DNA of 64,000 bases, taken from contig JAUXTO010000013.1 of NCBI GenBank assembly GCA_030679255.1, positions 84,383-148,382 on the forward strand, read 5' to 3'. Numbering within the stretch: the first letter of the stretch is position 1; every line of letters starts with the position of its first letter. A program made the position numbers and the translations under genes. The stretch is from Candidatus Gottesmanbacteria bacterium. GTDB taxonomy: Bacteria > Patescibacteriota > Microgenomatia > UBA10105 > UBA927. Positions 23,276-46,855 of this stretch are shown here, one piece after another. The notes beneath the pieces are model-generated. The model saw only the letters and a program-made list of their open reading frames with translations, ran no database searches and was not told the origin of the DNA.

Positions 23276-24198
23276 CTTCCTGTAAATGCATCGACCACTG
23301 CTTTTCGATGCGTTGACGGTCCCGTCACGAAAAACCGTAGAGCTTCACGAGCAAGTGCAAATTTCGTCCGTATTGATGCATAGCGCATACCCATCAGCAG
23401 TCTGTTCCTAGTCATATAGTATTGATGGGTCTCACTTCCTACGCCGCTTGAACCCGCGTTCTTGTGCCAAACAACTGACTGCGGCGCGTACAGGAGTTTA
23501 TAGCCGGCGCGTTTGGCACGCAAACAATAATCCAGATCCTCTAGGTACGCGAAAAATTTCTCGTCAAATAGTCCGATTTTTTCAAACACCTCTTTCCGCA
23601 CCATCATGGAACAACCGGTGACAAATAGCGTCTCCTCTGTCTTATCATATTGTCCCTTATCCACTTCATCAACCCCACGGTGTGACGCGTACATATTCTC
23701 CCAGTCAATAAAACCTCCGGCGTACCAAATCACTTTTCCCAATTCCGTCTCTTGGTATCTTTCTTTATGATATTCCCGCCCCGACGCAAAATAAATTTTT
23801 GATCCGGCTATACCAACACGGCTATCGCGGCACGCATCAATAAGTGTTGTTAAAGCGTTTTTATCCACGACGGTATCGTTATTGAGAAGCCATACGAAGT
23901 CAGCTCCCTGTTCCCGCGCTCTCCGGATTCCGGCGTTATTGCCTCCCGAAAACCCAAGATTTCGACCGGTCTCAATTACTTCCACATCGGGAAAATTATT
24001 TCTGATAGCCTCCACAGAACCATCGGTAGACCCATTATCGACAACAATAACTTTGACTTTTTCAGCCAGAGGCTGATCCACCTTTGGCGGAGACTTTTGA
24101 CTTTTGACTTGCCGAAGCGAAGCGAGGCATTCAAGTGTATCTTTTTTACCATTCCAGTTAACCAGGATAATAGCGACGTATGATTTGATCATGATCAA
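23260..24198 (-). CDS. glycosyltransferase family 2 (rhamnosyl/WbbL-like) carrying an in-frame partial copy of the heptamer repeat
   Basis: VAIILVNWNGKKDTLECLASLRQ-[VKSQKSPPKVDQPLAEKVK]-VIVVDNGSTDGS...NLGFSGGNNAGI. The bracketed stretch is about 12 aa longer than the usual spacing in GT2 enzymes. It is encoded by TTTTGAC heptamer repeats at 24094-24110. Confidence 0.65.
   Translation of the reverse strand: MIMIKSYVAIILVNWNGKKDTLECLASLRQVKSQKSPPKVDQPLAEKVKVIVVDNGSTDGSVEAIRNNFPDVEVIETGRNLGFSGGNNAGIRRAREQGADFVWLLNNDTVVDKNALTTLIDACRDSRVGIAGSKIYFASGREYHKERYQETELGKVIWYAGGFIDWENMYASHRGVDEVDKGQYDKTEETLFVTGCSMMVRKEVFEKIGLFDEKFFAYLEDLDYCLRAKRAGYKLLYAPQSVVWHKNAGSSGVGSETHQYYMTRNRLLMGMRYASIRTKFALAREALRFFVTGPSTHRKAVVDAFTGRWGKA
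24082..24128. repeat. partial copy A of the heptamer repeat (heptamer arm only)
   Basis: CCTTTGGCGGAGACTTTTGACTTTTGACTTGCCGAAGCGAAGCGAGGC. It shares the CTTTTGACTTTTGACTT arm but lacks the stem-loop. It lies in-frame inside the GT2 gene at 23260-24198. Confidence 0.45.
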
Positions 24199-34538: not shown

Positions 34539-36170
34539 CTATAAGTGTATCAGTTTATGAATGGTGACAAATGATGTCTTCCAGGTGCCGGATATTGTGG
34601 CACTCCCGAATCCGGCAATTTCCCATAACGGGTGACCGAGCGGTTTGCAATCTGGCTCCTCACAAATCACAATCAACTGGTCGGTCACAGTTTTTCGCTC
34701 CGGATCTGCAAACTCCGGCTTGATCGTAACCGGAGGATTTCCCCAAATATCAAAAAAATATCGGTATACATGATCAGAATTACCTTGAGTGATCAGGGCA
34801 AAATTAAATGGCTTCTGACCGGTTTTATCAATTGCAACTTGTGCAATGCCGCGGGCTTGAGCCAGTTGATTATTCGGGGCAAATTGGAACGGCTGACCCT
34901 GCCAATTCCACCATAATAATAAAGCCGTCACGCCCACAGAAATTGCCATTCCGATGACATGAATTTGTTTGAGACGATAGAGAATAATACCGGTTACCAA
35001 AAACGGCAGGGTAAACCAAATGCCGAAGTAATAATCGTAAATTGCCCGTTTATAAAATCCAAATAAGACGGCTACGACAAAGCCCCAAAGCAGGAGAAGC
35101 AACGATGACCGTCGCCATCGGGCCGTATTGTTGATGGGATTGCAACCTATAACTAACAGGCCAATTCCAACCGTGAGAATGCCCACTATTCCCCAATGCC
35201 ACAACCCCTGCTGCCAAGACGGAATATCCGACCATATTTCCGGCTGCGGAAACCGGAGCACGAGTCTTCCGACTAACCGATAAAGAATGTCCTGGATAAT
35301 AATCCGGTATTTTTCTGGAGCGAGCCCTGTGTCGTTTCCCGCAAGAACAAATTGTATAATGGATTGTGTATTCGGAAATCCATGACGCAGTTCAAACAGG
35401 AGAAACGGCCCGAAACCCACCAGAAAACCCATCATACCAAGAATTCCCGTTTTGATCCGTTCCCGTACTTTGGTATACACGAGAACCCAAATGGCCGCAA
35501 CCGGAAAAAGAAATAAAAACAAGTAGTGAAGCTGCAAGCCTATTCCCATACATATCCCGGCACCAACTATATTCCTCAATCTTCCGTTTTCGGCAAATCT
35601 CCACAGAAGAAAAATCATCAGTAATGAAAAAAACGGCACGATATTGGGATTCCATGATGAACGGGAGTATGCGATGACCACCGGCGAAAGCGCATAGAGC
35701 GCGCTTGCCACGATTCCCACCCATGAACCAAACATATCCCGACCGCTCCGGTAGAGAAGATAGACGGTTGCGACACCAAATAACGCAACCATCACAGCAG
35801 GTCCCGTGGGGTCGAGTCTCCATGCCCAAAGAAAGGGCAGCATAAAATAATAATAGATTGGCCCCAAGAAAAATCCTCCCACGGATGCGGTAGGCCCGAG
35901 AAGCGTCCATTTATGATCAACGATCATCTGTTTGACGACCAGTGCGTCACGTCCTTCATCGCCCAAAAACGTCATATAGCCGGATATATTGTAAAGGCGG
36001 AGGTATGCTGCAACGAAAAGAATGACTACTATCAACAACTCAGACCAAGGAACTTTCCAACGTTTTGACTTTTGACCTTTGACTTTCCCGCCTGCAACGC
36101 TTTGCTTAGCATTGCGGGCAGGTGACTTTATTTTTTCCATATGACTTTTGAATACATTGTGTAATTCCAA
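34539..36170 (-). CDS. GT-C membrane glycosyltransferase (ArnT/PMT_2-like) with the repeat element in its 5' region
   Basis: LGDEGRDALVVKQM acidic loop motif followed by multiple transmembrane segments. The N-terminal residues KSPARNAKQSVAGGKVKGQKSKR are encoded by the 67-nt repeat at 36063-36129. An alternative TTG start downstream of the repeat (LLIVVILF) is possible. Confidence 0.6.
   Translation of the reverse strand: MELHNVFKSHMEKIKSPARNAKQSVAGGKVKGQKSKRWKVPWSELLIVVILFVAAYLRLYNISGYMTFLGDEGRDALVVKQMIVDHKWTLLGPTASVGGFFLGPIYYYFMLPFLWAWRLDPTGPAVMVALFGVATVYLLYRSGRDMFGSWVGIVASALYALSPVVIAYSRSSWNPNIVPFFSLLMIFLLWRFAENGRLRNIVGAGICMGIGLQLHYLFLFLFPVAAIWVLVYTKVRERIKTGILGMMGFLVGFGPFLLFELRHGFPNTQSIIQFVLAGNDTGLAPEKYRIIIQDILYRLVGRLVLRFPQPEIWSDIPSWQQGLWHWGIVGILTVGIGLLVIGCNPINNTARWRRSSLLLLLWGFVVAVLFGFYKRAIYDYYFGIWFTLPFLVTGIILYRLKQIHVIGMAISVGVTALLLWWNWQGQPFQFAPNNQLAQARGIAQVAIDKTGQKPFNFALITQGNSDHVYRYFFDIWGNPPVTIKPEFADPERKTVTDQLIVICEEPDCKPLGHPLWEIAGFGSATISGTWKTSFVTIHKLIHL
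36063..36129. repeat. 67-nt heptamer/palindromic repeat element, copy B
   Basis: TTTTGACTTTTGACCTTTGACTTTCCCGCCTGCAACGCTTTGCTTAGCATTGCGGGCAGGTGACTTT: TTTTGAC heptamers, an imperfect stem-loop (CCCGCCTGC...GCGGGCAGG) and a GTGACTTT terminus. It begins inside the stop codon of the upstream GT2-GtrA gene and encodes the N-terminal segment of the next GT-C gene. Confidence 0.7.
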
Positions 36171-43839: not shown

Positions 43840-44748
43840 TCAAGAAGAGTATCGATCATCTTCATAGATTGGCACAACGGTTTGTCCTACGAATAAATTA
43901 TTGATGGGAACTCCAAGAAGAACTCCAAGTGTATTGGCAAGAGCAACACCCACGCGAAGGCCGGTATAGGAACCCGGACCTGTATTGACGCGTATCGATG
44001 TAATATCGCCAAGGACGTGGTGTGACGTATCTAAAAGTTTCACAATCAAGGGAAGTGCCTCCTGAGCTTTACCCACACGCATATCGCGCGCTTTGAGCGT
44101 TTGATGGCCGTGCGCATCGATGAAGCTCACGGCTATGACGTCCGAGCGTGATGTGTCAATAGTAAGGGTGAGCGGCTGTTTCAACAGTACGACTCCCTGA
44201 CGAATAATCCTAATGGTTCCGGTGGAACAATCTACGACGGTTGACGCGTTCCCGATAGAACATACCCCAGGTACGACATAATCCACGAGCTTGATGAGCT
44301 CCAGATCCAAATCTTCATAGCAGTAGGGAGTAGGAGACCCATGAAAATTGGCTGATGGCCCGAGGATCGGCACACCCACCCCTCGGATAAGCTCCAAGGC
44401 GGTCTCGTGATTGGGCATACGTAAACCAATATTTTTTCCGCTACCACGGATAGGGGAGTACACTAAATTTTCTTTACACCCAGCGATAATAGTAAGCGCA
44501 CCGGGCCAATACGTTTTCATCAGATGTCGTACAATTTCTGACGGATCGAGATAGTAGGCGAGAGCCATAGCCTTGGATGCAACCAGAACCGGGGTCGCCT
44601 GTGTACGCGGGCGTTTACGGAGCTTAAACAGTCTGTCTACCGCTTTCACATCATCCATCCGGCACCCTATGCCGAAAGCTGTATCCGTCGGATACATGAT
44701 GATACCGCCCTCCTTTAAAACCTGAATCGCTTGCTTGATACTTTCCAT
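43840..44748 (-). CDS. fusion of L-threonylcarbamoyladenylate synthase TsaC (YrdC domain) with an N-terminal-domain-only TsaB (YeaZ) module
   Basis: N-terminal 185 aa: MYPTDTAFGIG...LGPSANFHG...STVVDCSTGTIRIIRQG is the YrdC/Sua5 signature. C-terminal 115 aa: LTLTIDTSRSDVIAVSFI...NTGPGSYTGLRVGVALANTLGVLLGVP is the TsaB/YeaZ N-domain signature. Confidence 0.6.
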   Translation of the reverse strand: MESIKQAIQVLKEGGIIMYPTDTAFGIGCRMDDVKAVDRLFKLRKRPRTQATPVLVASKAMALAYYLDPSEIVRHLMKTYWPGALTIIAGCKENLVYSPIRGSGKNIGLRMPNHETALELIRGVGVPILGPSANFHGSPTPYCYEDLDLELIKLVDYVVPGVCSIGNASTVVDCSTGTIRIIRQGVVLLKQPLTLTIDTSRSDVIAVSFIDAHGHQTLKARDMRVGKAQEALPLIVKLLDTSHHVLGDITSIRVNTGPGSYTGLRVGVALANTLGVLLGVPINNLFVGQTVVPIYEDDRYSS

Positions 44749-44753
44749 AGTTA

Positions 44754-45272
44754 TTAGATGACTCGCTCCATCGAAATTTTATGCGAATCGTTTTCCAATA
44801 CCTCAAATCGTATATCAACCCTTCTTTTTGGAAGTAATCCACCCAATGTATCAGCCCATTCGATAAGTACGATCGAATCCGAATCTCTCAGCATTTCCGG
44901 GATTCCCAACTCAACAAGCTCTTTTTCGTCACCAATACGGTACAAATCGATATGATATAAAAATCCTGATTGTTTTACCAGTTGATAACGTCGTACAATA
45001 TAAAAAGTCGGGGAGAGCAGGCGAGAGGTAATTCCTAATGCTTTTCCAAATCCCTGAACAAACGTCGTCTTCCCACTGCCCAGTTCCCCATATAAACAAA
45101 CAGTCAATGCTCCCCGATCTTGTTCACTTTTGACTTTTGACTTTCCCGCCTGCAACGCTTGATGCGTAGCATTTGCGGGCAGGTGACTTTTGACTATATG
45201 AATCCCCAACTCTTGGCCAATGCGCGCAGTTTCTTTGGGCTCCGTGGTAATAAATGGGTAAGTGAAATCCAT
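44754..45272 (-). CDS. tsaE: tRNA threonylcarbamoyladenosine biosynthesis protein TsaE with a 23-aa in-frame insertion
   Basis: LYGELGSGKTTFVQGFGKALG P-loop and YHIDLYRI...LIEWAD C-terminus. The insert KSHLPANATHQALQAGKSKVKSEQ sits between helix alpha-1 (ETARIGQELGIHI) and strand beta-2 (ALTVCLYG). Confidence 0.7.
   Translation of the reverse strand: MDFTYPFITTEPKETARIGQELGIHIVKSHLPANATHQALQAGKSKVKSEQDRGALTVCLYGELGSGKTTFVQGFGKALGITSRLLSPTFYIVRRYQLVKQSGFLYHIDLYRIGDEKELVELGIPEMLRDSDSIVLIEWADTLGGLLPKRRVDIRFEVLENDSHKISMERVI
45127..45195. repeat. 69-nt heptamer/palindromic repeat element, copy C
   Basis: CTTTTGACTTTTGACTTTCCCGCCTGCAACGCTTGATGCGTAGCATTTGCGGGCAGGTGACTTTTGAC is about 85% identical to copy B, and the loop region differs. 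It lies in-frame inside tsaE and ends at the VanZ-like gene stop codon. Confidence 0.7.
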
Positions 45273-45607
45273 GCAATGCTTGCTCCTATGGCGTCAATTA
45301 TAACATCCCGAAGCCTCCCCTCCCGTGTCGGAACGAACAGTTGGTGTATTTCATCCGTAACAGCATAGATGAGTGTCAAAAAAAATGCGACCGCAAGTAA
45401 ATTGATTCCGATGGAAGCACGTAGAGTATTTTTTAATGCTCGGAAGTACAAAACAAACAAAATGGAGTACTCGATCACATGGAGCGTTTTAAAAAATAGG
45501 AAATTGATGAGAGGCTCCTGGGCAACCTGAACGCTTGACCTGCCAGATAAGAAAAAAATCACTCCCATCCAGGCCACAACCGGAAGCCAATATCGGACAA
45601 ACTTCAT
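45194..45607 (-). CDS. VanZ-like family membrane protein
   Basis: 137 aa, four transmembrane segments, TDEIHQLFVPTREGRLRDVIIDAIG VanZ motif. The 3' end overlaps the tsaE start by about 77 nt in another frame. Confidence 0.5.
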   Translation of the reverse strand: MKFVRYWLPVVAWMGVIFFLSGRSSVQVAQEPLINFLFFKTLHVIEYSILFVLYFRALKNTLRASIGINLLAVAFFLTLIYAVTDEIHQLFVPTREGRLRDVIIDAIGASIAWISLTHLLPRSPKKLRALAKSWGFI

Positions 45608-46509
45608 TTATCCAGTATATCAGAATGATGCTCCCGCGCGATCTTCCAGGTATAAACCCCGGCAAGCATAGCCAAACCAATCGCCACTAAGAGCATAGAA
45701 ATGACCATCGGCTTCCAGGAATTATTGGAAGCATACGCGCTTGGCGATGATGTTTTCGCTTCGACACGCTCGCCCAATACGAACAGCTCCCTCACGGCAG
45801 GTTGTTCCTCTGCGTCTTCTGCGGTTGAAGGTACTCCGGGAGACGGAGATTTGGATACCATAAGTGTAGACATAGGAGTACTCGTTGGTGAAGGTGTCTT
45901 CGTCGGTGTAGCTACAGCCGTGGGCGTAGGAGTAGCGGTAGGCTTAGTAGTGGGGGTAGGAGTTGGCGTCTTTGTTGGCGTAGGCGTAAAAGTTGGGGTG
46001 GCTGTGGCTTGCGGCGTAGGTGTTGGAGTCGGTGTTGGAGTTGGTGATGGCGCCAAATCAGAACATTTCGATGATGATTTCGATGGCGTTTGATTTACTT
46101 GCCAACTCCCACCATCCGGAACCCGCGCGTATGATTTATCCGCAGAACTACTCGCGTATTGATAACTATCAATAAGCGAACCATCAAGCTTAAATATCGT
46201 TGGCGTGTCGCCATTGTTGTTCAGATACGTCGAAAGCTCTACATAGCATGTTGCACTGGATAATAATAAACCAGAAATTGCAAGTCTTCCCGATGAGCCG
46301 CTATCAGAATCAAAATTAGTATCATCATCAAAGTAATAATTCGATAAATCCTCCGAGGATGGCTCAGTGTTATAAAACTCAATCCACTCTACGTTCCCGC
46401 TTGAAGGCGCTGGAAGAAATTCATTGATAACAACGGCGGCAAAAGCACGAGGAGGAAATGTAATGAAGAAACAGAGACTGATAAAAGCCTTGATTAAAAG
46501 GGGTCTCAT
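45604..46509 (-). CDS. secreted lamin-tail-domain (LTD) protein with Pro/Thr-rich linker and C-terminal TM anchor
   Basis: Signal peptide [24 protein letters not shown], then the LTD motif [22 protein letters not shown]. The (TP)n linker is about 65 aa and there is a C-terminal hydrophobic segment. The start is taken at the Met adjacent to the upstream stop. Confidence 0.55.
45920..46120. repeat. low-complexity coding repeat (Pro-Thr linker)
   Basis: GGTGT/AGGNGT-type repeats encode [34 protein letters not shown]... in the LTD protein. Confidence 0.6.
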
Positions 46510-46510
46510 G

Positions 46511-46855
46511 TCACATCCCTCCCTCTCTTGTATGTCGCTCTTTTTTATACGCATACACAAACCGTGACTCGTCACTCCCGCCGCCTGACCCTCCATCTGT
46601 TTGATAGTTTGTAATAAAGTACCGCTCTACTCTGCGCGCCGCATCTGCGGTAACGCATTCCCTATATATCCAATAATCCATATCTTTGTTTACGCCATGC
46701 TCTTCAAACAACCTCGCTTGCGCGTTTTCGGCAATACCCACATACCAGTCTGTGGACAGCGTATTGGTTTTATGGATATATTCAACTATGTCGTTTACAA
46801 TACTGCTTTCTTGTTGTGGCATAGTCCAAGTGTAGATTGGTGATCGGTGACTCAA
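46511..46855 (-). CDS. small hypothetical protein, possible GIY-YIG-like (YhbQ/UPF0213-type) domain
   Basis: YVGIAENAQARLFEEHGV resembles the YIG...R...H half of the GIY-YIG motif. An upstream IYTW may be the GIY half, and RRVERYF a possible Glu site. Its stop is 1 nt before the LTD gene start. Confidence 0.3.
   Translation of the reverse strand: MSHRSPIYTWTMPQQESSIVNDIVEYIHKTNTLSTDWYVGIAENAQARLFEEHGVNKDMDYWIYRECVTADAARRVERYFITNYQTDGGSGGGSDESRFVYAYKKERHTREGGM

Follow-up and report, generated by a model that had tools for sequence, protein, structure and literature searches.

In a 64,000-nucleotide (nt) stretch of the Candidatus Gottesmanbacteria contig JAUXTO010000013.1 (positions 84,383 to 148,382, hereafter the window), the tsaE gene was found to carry 24 additional in-frame codons derived from repeat DNA. 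The analysis indicates, with a rough probability of 0.8, that this tsaE is intact and, judging by its sequence and a structural model, probably functional, and that the loop between helix alpha1 and strand beta2 of its product was colonised in two steps by selfish repeat DNA. Two layers make up the insert, namely a tandem array of GTCAAAA heptamers and an imperfect, GC-rich palindrome of 39 nt, a hairpin referred to below as HP. An earlier note on this DNA had described the insert from the letters of the window; its reader could not see the two-layer make-up, the spread of HP across phyla or the association of HP with a gene for a GIY-YIG nuclease.

The TsaE insert and its alleles

TsaE is the ATPase subunit of the complex that introduces the N6-threonylcarbamoyladenosine (t6A) modification into tRNA. 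In the window it is encoded on the minus strand by an open reading frame (ORF) of 172 codons, insert included, with an ATG start (44754–45272), assigned on the basis of the ORF list, Pfam, NCBIfam and an AlphaFold2 model. The product matched Pfam PF02367 with E = 5e-32 and 111 bits (cut-off 26.6) and the NCBIfam equivalog TIGR00150 with 104.2 bits (cut-off 60.1). All residues invariant in the family, as judged from an alignment of 37 homologues, were present (G62, G65, G67, K68, T69, T70, S87, P88, H107, D109, Y111, R112, E138 and W139). The Walker A motif or P-loop, GELGSGKT, occupies residues 62–69 (45066–45089, minus strand), with G62, L64, G65, G67, K68 and T69 as invariant columns.

A database search returned 2419 TsaE homologues, and lengths and spacing were studied in the 120 best. 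The commonest length among these was 148 amino acids (aa), the window protein being 24 aa longer. The N-terminal sequence MDFxxxxITxSPQETAxLGxELG was kept in all 37 aligned homologues, with M1, E14 and T15 invariant, and none of them had an unrelated N-terminus. In the window protein, the alignment and Pfam assign this conserved part to residues 1–27 (45192–45272, minus strand), with beta1 at residues 7–9 and alpha1 from residue 12. Conservation in the aligned homologues extended from xxVCLYGELGSGKTT onward, and the stretch between this part and the N-terminal sequence was hypervariable, with 0 to 34 extra residues. Comparison with the 148-aa orthologues, together with the alignment and the predicted local distance difference test (pLDDT) values of the model, delimited the insert as residues 28–51 (KSHLPANATHQALQAGKSKVKSEQ; 45120–45191, minus strand). 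It is thus one residue longer than the 23 residues given in the earlier note, whose placement of it in the alpha1-beta2 loop ahead of the P-loop agrees with both the homologue alignment and the model.

The AlphaFold2 model, built from the homologue alignment, had a mean pLDDT of 85 and a predicted template modelling (pTM) score of 0.82. Its secondary structure comprised beta1 (residues 7–9), alpha1 (12–30) and a strand (56–61) leading into the P-loop. Beta1 and alpha1 were modelled with a pLDDT of 88–96, and the block means within the insert (residues 31–50) were 57 and 52, pointing to disorder. A Foldseek search with the model retrieved 1HTW with E = 6e-12; template modelling (TM) scores to 1HTW, 6S84 and 5NP9 were 0.70–0.79, and 6N9A also matched. 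The insert is therefore compatible with the TsaE fold, as had been proposed. In P-loop NTPases, the nucleotide site and the loop preceding the P-loop strand are found at opposite edges of the sheet. From this topology, the TsaE insert loop should face away from the active face and the nucleotide site and hence be tolerated.

The Pfam profile was matched by the full window protein at positions 23–123 (111 bits), by the protein without the 24 residues at positions 2–123 (115.2 bits) and by the protein without the hairpin-encoded residues at positions 3–123 (112.8 bits). A phmmer comparison with the PDB, which placed insert residues 34–55 on alpha1 of Thermotoga maritima TsaE, was rejected as a local-alignment artefact in view of the family alignment and the Pfam test. 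The match is misleading in that it conceals the true N-terminus, and it illustrates how inserts derived from repeats can corrupt automatic alignments.

The coding-strand DNA across the insert reads ATA GTCAAAA GTCA CCTGCCCGCAAATGCTACGCATCAAGCGTTGCAGGCGGG AAA GTCAAAA GTCAAAA GTGAACA AGATCGG. The left heptamer part, GTCAAAA GTCA, was located at 45184–45194 (minus strand; sequence, with period 7 detected by Tandem Repeats Finder, TRF), followed by the 39-nt HP CCTGCCCGCAAATGCTACGCATCAAGCGTTGCAGGCGGG at 45145–45183 (minus strand), an exact pattern match encoding (H)LPANATHQALQAG, and by the right heptamer part AAA GTCAAAA GTCAAAA GTGAACA at 45121–45144 (minus strand; sequence and TRF). HP sits within the second heptamer, between GTCA and AAA, without duplication of the target, and its deletion in silico left the flanks as an in-register (GTCAAAA)4 array with a score of 27. 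The 77-nt tsaE element had a predicted RNA folding energy of -20 kcal/mol (z = -2.6). A terminator reading of HP was discarded by eye, no terminator scan having been run, as the coding-strand hairpin is followed by an A-rich and not a U-rich stretch.

Orthologous loci provided a series of alleles. The tsaE gene of L125 had no insert (...TATATAAGAGAAAAGGGGATTCAC; I-REKG-IHVV). In L127, heptamers only were present (GTCCAAA GTCAAAA GTCCAAA GTCAAAA GTGAACA), with the full N-terminus in frame, and this allele can be read as effectively an empty site for HP. In L001, whose protein is 86% identical to that of the window, a 69-nt HP occupied the third heptamer and contained a second, related hairpin nested within the loop. 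A different hairpin was found within the same GTCAAAA array in L004, and arrays of other heptamers, GTTAAAA and AGGAAAA, in L128 and L126, respectively. All of these alleles, including that of the window, were in frame, with inserts of 0, 11, 24, 26 and 34 residues. The hairpin was read in different phases, as LPANA... in the window and as SPARNA... in L001; the frame of the tsaE insert is conserved and its peptide sequence is not. Compensating +7/-7 heptamer indels between the window and L001 had been considered and were dropped, L127 showing an equal array total, with HP in a different heptamer.

The conserved N-terminus, the frame kept in the orthologues and the modelled fold with a disordered insert together support well that the alpha1-beta2 insert is translated. 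A TsaE with a disordered 24-residue loop would then be made and would work. The tryptic peptide predicted across the insert junction is SHLPANATHQALQAGK, preceded by IGQELGIHIVK.

In the proposed course of events, a tandem GTCAAAA array of about four to five units (33 nt net) would first have arisen just after alpha1. Such an array is open in all three coding-strand frames and would give a hydrophilic linker of K, S, V and Q. In the second step, the 39-nt HP would have entered the second heptamer at the position described above, with no target-site duplication. Because the length of HP is a multiple of three and its frame contains no stop, the ribosome would read through it, resulting in the disordered loop. 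HP itself would be a mobile, selfish and non-autonomous element.

An alternative is that the additional basic, flexible loop is adaptive, serving the binding of tRNA or of TsaB–TsaD, and that repeat DNA was its raw material. About one third of the 120 best TsaE homologues had 8 to 34 extra, mostly basic residues at exactly the same loop, and the site was used again by different heptamers (GTCAAAA, GTTAAAA and AGGAAAA). However, the sequence and the length of the insert differ even between the 86%-identical orthologues, many close relatives of 148 aa do without it, and the same hairpin peptide is present in unrelated proteins. The basic composition follows from stop-free A-rich heptamers, and if a 148-aa protein has its main permissive loop here, the site can be expected to be used repeatedly. 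An adaptive origin is therefore considered rather improbable. The inserts of other sequence found in this loop, mostly basic and 8–26 residues long, included RKKVNGKRKKG, NFKLQNRIGNS, VKSEKLKVKS, RTQNAELNDQKRGQ and LRLRSGQAGEH, in homologues such as P0005, P0007/P0012, P0020, P0038, P0049, P0056 and P0067. The DNA of such inserts (L126, L128) consisted of other heptamer arrays with or without other small hairpins.

The translation of the insert would be in question if TsaE started at the TTG of residue 55, the upstream 27 codons being a relic or the tail of the upstream VanZ-like gene and the long ORF an artefact. This in-frame TTG follows the insert and is preceded by GGGGAG, one gene caller picked an internal start in the orthologue L127, and the N-terminal region is also read by the VanZ-like gene in another frame. 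Against this, the 27 N-terminal residues are kept in the TsaE frame in all homologues, including the insert-free ones, they match the start of the Pfam profile and add about 7.6 bits, and they contain the confidently modelled beta1 and alpha1 (pLDDT 88–96). The frame is also always kept across inserts of differing length. A protein started at the TTG scored 107.6 bits over profile positions 24–123, with positions 1–23 lost, and such a start, already held unlikely in the earlier note, is very improbable.

It is hardly credible, too, that the heptamer array acts as a slippage-prone phase-variation switch for tsaE. A change in the copy number of a 7-nt unit does shift the frame, and arrays occur in several coding regions of the window, but only two to four interrupted units are present, tsaE belongs to a core tRNA-modification pathway, and all orthologous alleles seen are in frame.

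HP in other genomes and inside genes

The search for HP with the pattern CCCGCCTGCAA-N(5-30)-TGCGGGCAGG, which has 21 fixed bases, in 1.2e12 bases of species-representative genomes revealed at least 128 copies in at least 120 loci, compared to about 7 expected by chance. The hosts in the Candidate Phyla Radiation (CPR)/Patescibacteria were Nomura-, Sacchari-, Moran-, Portnoy-, Falkow-, Curtiss-, Roizman-, Woese-, Shapiro- and Taylorbacteria and Microgenomates. Outside the CPR, copies were detected in Verrucomicrobia, Kiritimatiellia, Lentisphaerae and metagenome-assembled genomes (MAGs) labelled Gammaproteobacteria, and HP was also present on seven contigs classed as viral (L129–L135, IMG/VR), one of which had two copies. 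Together with a second copy in the window (36063–36129), these loci confirm that the repeat described in the earlier note is real.

The consensus of the family is CCTGCCCGCAATGCTACGCATAGCGTTGCAGGCGGG, with a length of 27–49 nt, most commonly 36 nt. The interior, which was free in the search pattern, was also conserved, and the inner-stem positions 11 and 21 co-varied as A-T, T-A and G-C. Position -1 was a purine in 101 of 127 copies. In L163, L186 and L189, compared to the canonical HP, one arm was CC[a]GCC[b]GC and the other, as its reverse complement, CC[b]GCC[a]GC. The two non-Watson–Crick positions of the HP stem change together yet stay mismatched (about four variant cases), and this mismatch pattern would fit alternative pairings slipped by 4 nt (CCTGC/GCAGG and CCCGC/GCGGG). 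Nested and tandem copies were found in L017, L021, L053, L113 and L117, and a nested one in L001 as well.

Tandem repeats of period 7 flanked 11% of the HP copies, compared to 0.8% of random positions in the same loci. Their register was maintained across the hairpin, and of the other periods from 4 to 11 none was comparably enriched beside HP. The heptamer was specific to the genome, with GTCAAAA, ATCAAAA, ATTGAAA, AGTTAGA, CTGACTC and others. Target-site duplications at HP were not detected beyond chance, except inside heptamer arrays. A model of HP as a MITE, a miniature transposable element with inverted repeats, was set aside in view of the missing target-site duplication and because the whole element is one hairpin. 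In these HP-selected loci, HP was located within 400 nt of a tRNA gene in 11% of cases, compared to 2.9% of random positions.

A search of Rfam 15 with E up to 10 gave nothing relevant on the tsaE region, and only tRNAs in six GIY-YIG loci. In the literature, searching by sequence string retrieved only unrelated primer matches to HP. A publication on the HP hairpin, on in-frame palindromes in CPR proteins or on a module of GIY-YIG gene, palindrome and tRNA was not found in a literature of incomplete coverage, and novelty is accordingly provisional.

Of the 128 copies, 57 (about 45%) were located in open frames that spanned 100 codons or more and left 15 or more codons on either side of HP. In the 39 copies lying deepest within ORFs, the length of HP was a multiple of three in 35 cases; for copies outside long ORFs, the count was 24 of 50 (Fisher p = 3.4e-5). 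These 39 copies were oriented mainly in the sense direction (31 sense, 8 antisense) and were read in two stop-free phases only, giving PARNATHSVAGG-like or LPAxxxxALQAG-like peptides. Host proteins with Pfam domains on both sides of HP were a class I aminoacyl-tRNA synthetase (aaRS), SecA, GyrA, SMC, PheT, a pyruvate phosphate dikinase (PPDK)-type enzyme, GltX and an ABC ATPase. In SMC, the insert was placed just ahead of the P-loop strand, as in TsaE.

The multiple-of-three bias is the strongest indirect evidence for translation of the tsaE copy, and, with the frame kept across 0 to 34 residues, it favours the view taken in the earlier note that the repeat is truly translated and is not an artefact of ORF calling. 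HP would seem to survive in genes only if it is a multiple of three, stop-free and placed in a permissive loop. The same bias argues against removal or bypassing of the hairpin at the RNA level, comparable to phage T4 gene 60 or the yeast mitochondrial byp elements. A stable mRNA hairpin is indeed predicted (-20 kcal/mol), and the copies in ORFs are mostly in the sense orientation (31 versus 8). However, neither removal nor bypassing imposes a length constraint or needs a stop-free frame, whereas 35 of 39 copies have lengths divisible by three, and reading is confined to the two stop-free phases. No known RNA family in Rfam was matched either, and the odds of this explanation are very small indeed.

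An assembly or sequencing artefact can practically be dismissed: the window allele is known from one contig only, but the related nested-hairpin allele of L001 is present on five contigs, of which three are listed under separate assemblies at NCBI and ENA, and HP occurs in MAGs of many studies, always in locus-specific contexts.

A GIY-YIG nuclease gene as candidate partner of HP

The clustering of ORFs around HP singled out a GIY-YIG family of about 80–100 aa, the other clusters being mainly housekeeping (ABC ATPases, GyrA/GyrB, aaRS). No RAYT-like family (REP-associated tyrosine transposase, where REP stands for repetitive extragenic palindromic sequence) was among the recurrent neighbours in this clustering of ORFs near HP, in which whole genomes were not searched. 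In the HP-selected loci, five to six of the seven GIY-YIG genes lay within 125 nt of HP. As an independent test, 80 metagenome-contig loci were fetched by similarity of the GIY-YIG protein alone. HP was present within 150 nt upstream of the GIY-YIG gene in 51 of 78 usable loci when up to two mismatches per arm were allowed, and in 55 of 80 with up to three mismatches in total. It usually lay 5–40 nt from the start of the gene, and in several more loci diverged or nested relatives of HP were recognised by eye. Elsewhere in these loci, 22 copies were found per 183 kb, a density about 35-fold lower than that upstream of the gene. The GIY-YIG protein matched the Pfam GIY-YIG domain with E = 8e-18, its nearest solved relatives being the UPF0213 proteins BH0048 and EF2693 and the structure-specific endonuclease SLX1.

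The GIY-YIG loci shared a common order: a copy of the first 21–47 nt of a tRNA with HP in its D-arm, a TATAAT-like box, the GIY-YIG ORF and an intact tRNA. The position of HP in the D-arm of the tRNA fragment was variable and both orientations were used (28 versus 27). The intact tRNA, of the same kind as the fragment, started a few bases after the GIY-YIG stop in about 60 of the 80 loci. Such modules were found in L136–L215 (e.g., L142 at 1380–1820, L176 and L194) and also in L017, L044, L068 and L078, with tRNAs for Gln, Asn, Leu, Lys, Ile, Thr, Asp, Pro, His, Val and Ser. The unit of GIY-YIG gene, HP and tRNA fragment looks like a selfish module associated with tRNA genes. GIY-YIG genes are among those predicted to have moved from Patescibacteria to other bacteria (PMC12455944).

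Mobilisation of HP by the UPF0213/SLX1-like GIY-YIG nuclease is put forward tentatively, at somewhat less than even odds. The enzyme might, for example, make breaks at structured or repeated DNA, which would be repaired from another HP-bearing array or hairpin. Repair from such a template would explain the in-register insertion, the occupation of different heptamers in close relatives and the nesting in hairpin loops. In a wider proposal, possible though somewhat doubtful as a whole, HP would be the non-autonomous partner of this gene family next to tRNA genes, analogous to REP and RAYT but with another enzyme fold. It would move between CPR, Verrucomicrobia, Kiritimatiellia and Lentisphaerae, target heptamer arrays, hairpin loops and D-arm-like DNA without duplication, and routinely write peptides of 10–15 residues (PARNATHSVAGG or LPAxxxxALQAG) into TsaE, SecA, GyrA, SMC, aaRS and other essential proteins.

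Several points weigh against the colonisation of tsaE by selfish repeat DNA as set out here. The translation and the activity of this tsaE allele are argued indirectly, from sequence and model. The search pattern itself fixed the arms of HP, which accounts for part of their apparent invariance. The 64-kb window shows only two HP copies and contains no GIY-YIG gene and no tRNA gene, so that for this genome the partner gene is a candidate only. The association of HP with the GIY-YIG gene could be indirect, the duplicated non-functional 5' tRNA fragment being rare neutral DNA in compact genomes; the residence of HP in this fragment in either orientation and at variable positions makes this possible. 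Finally, many orthologues have K/R-rich loop inserts of other sequence, and a basic loop may be of some selective value.

Gene neighbourhood, further repeats and comparison with known elements

Upstream of tsaE lies the VanZ-like gene (45194–45607, minus strand; Pfam VanZ, E = 1.4e-14), whose TAG abuts the first heptamer. Its 3' end overlaps the start of tsaE in another frame by 79 nt (45194–45272), a little more than the approximately 77 nt estimated earlier. The gene had also been said to terminate inside the element, but only the G of its TAG (45194–45196) lies in the first heptamer, and in the insert-free orthologue L125 the stop at the same place is TAA. The VanZ stop is ancestral and merely adjoins the element. 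The overlap of 79 nt and the position of the stop were the same in L125 and L126, and the out-of-frame overlap of the VanZ tail with tsaE is conserved whether or not an orthologue has the insert. Insertions in tsaE have their hot spot exactly from the point where the dual coding of VanZ and tsaE ends. The start of the VanZ-like gene is in turn overlapped by 4 nt by a neighbour (45604–46596) encoding a lamin-tail-domain protein that has a membrane anchor at its C-terminus and a long linker rich in Pro and Thr.

Directly downstream of tsaE, a gene for TsaC/Sua5 fused to an N-terminal TsaB fragment was identified with Pfam and NCBIfam (43840–44748, minus strand). Its product matched Pfam Sua5_yciO_yrdC (E = 1.4e-44) and TIGR00057 (157 bits) and had a TsaD-like match. 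The TsaB part covers only the first 90 or so residues (positions 2–88 of 212 of TIGR03725, just under the cut-off), and a TsaB shortened in this way would be out of the ordinary in the t6A machinery of bacteria. The same fusion of about 300 aa follows tsaE in L001, L004, L125 and L126. The order of the VanZ-like gene, tsaE, tsaC-tsaB and a CAP-domain gene is repeated in these orthologous loci. For the presumed ATPase activity of the window TsaE and its putative t6A role with TsaB and TsaD, the adjacent TsaC/Sua5–TsaB fusion provides context.

The second element of the window (36063–36129, minus strand; repeat family and sequence) comprises heptamers at 36063–36086, a 36-nt HP at 36087–36122 and AAAGTCA at 36123–36129. 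It is located at the 5' end of an ORF for a putative 543-aa membrane protein (34539–36170, minus strand), where it reads KSPARNAKQSVAGGKVKGQKSK, and its predicted RNA folding energy was -23.9 kcal/mol (z = -4.6). The likely ATG of this ORF (36138–36140) precedes the element, which would then encode a cytoplasmic N-terminal tail. The TAA (36128–36130) of an upstream 388-aa ORF overlaps the edge of the element. This copy, like that in tsaE, adjoins the stop of the upstream gene, the first position free of dual-coding constraint. Heptamer arrays without a hairpin were detected by TRF at two further sites. One contains 2.7 units of GTCAAAA (24092–24110, minus strand; TRF and sequence) and encodes VKSQKS in a 312-aa ORF that by eye resembles family 2 glycosyltransferases. 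The other contains 3.6 units of GGTCATT, as read on the coding strand (1782–1806), in a putative 546-aa membrane-protein ORF. A relaxed HP search of the 64-kb window revealed no copy beyond the two.

For annotation and structure prediction, the long tsaE ORF should be kept and residues 28–51 treated as a repeat-derived disordered loop, not as a domain or a mis-called start. HP, a hairpin of about 36 nt, occurs in identical form in phyla that are far apart, and highly reduced genomes tolerate it in frame within their core genes. It is a recognisable marker of horizontal exchange among CPR and Planctomycetes–Verrucomicrobia–Chlamydiae (PVC) bacteria in groundwater and lake communities, and its copies naturally map the sites at which essential proteins permit insertions. 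In protein clustering, it gives rise to spurious "conserved peptides". To our knowledge, the enzymes that move very small palindromic repeats, such as the Rickettsia palindromic elements (RPE) and the cyanobacterial small dispersed repeats (SDR), are mostly unknown, and the tight link of HP to one small nuclease gene offers a concrete, testable candidate mover.

Compared with canonical TsaE/YjeE (1HTW; T. maritima TsaB2D2E2, 6N9A/6S84; Bacillus subtilis YdiB, 5NP9), the window TsaE has the same fold and Walker A motif, the SPTF, YHxDxYR and EW motifs and a t6A gene neighbourhood. Canonical proteins and the 148-aa orthologues have a short turn between alpha1 and beta2, whereas the window TsaE has 24 extra residues predicted to be disordered.

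The RPE described by Ogata et al. in 2000 are reportedly found in frame in many genes, including essential ones, where they are compatible with the fold and translated. HP resembles them as a dispersed palindrome inside housekeeping ORFs with the frame kept. Compared by description, RPE are about 100–150 bp long and reportedly confined to Rickettsia and relatives, whereas HP is three- to four-fold shorter (27–49 nt) and present in several phyla. HP also differs from RPE in being tied to heptamer arrays and in having a candidate partner nuclease. The SDR of Nostocales (21–27 nt; Elhai et al., 2008) are said to reside inside tandem heptamers, to be nested and to lack transposon hallmarks. HP shares with them the residence in heptamer arrays, the nesting and the absence of target duplication, and differs in hosts and probably in sequence. 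We know of no report of a partner enzyme of SDR or of their systematic in-frame use of housekeeping genes.

REP sequences and REPINs, about 35 nt in length, are imperfect palindromes whose mismatches are conserved, present in many copies and clustered beside one small nuclease gene; REP are extragenic and have a GTAG/CGTC head, and RAYT is an HUH tyrosine enzyme of the IS200/IS605 type (PMC3116915, PMC2817692). HP is similar to REP as an imperfect palindrome of about 20–40 nt with many dispersed copies and a dedicated neighbour gene. However, about 45% of HP copies are in ORFs, HP has no head beyond the purine at -1, and its neighbour encodes a GIY-YIG and not an HUH protein. The GC clusters of yeast and fungal mitochondria are GC-rich palindromes of 30–40 bp, mobile in AT-rich compact genomes and sometimes located in coding sequences (PMC4478555). 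Unlike HP, they are organellar and belong to another sequence family, and they are not known to have a tRNA-linked GIY-YIG partner. In the light of these comparisons, the tsaE insert is probably an in-frame selfish palindrome whose reach and partner gene were unexpected.

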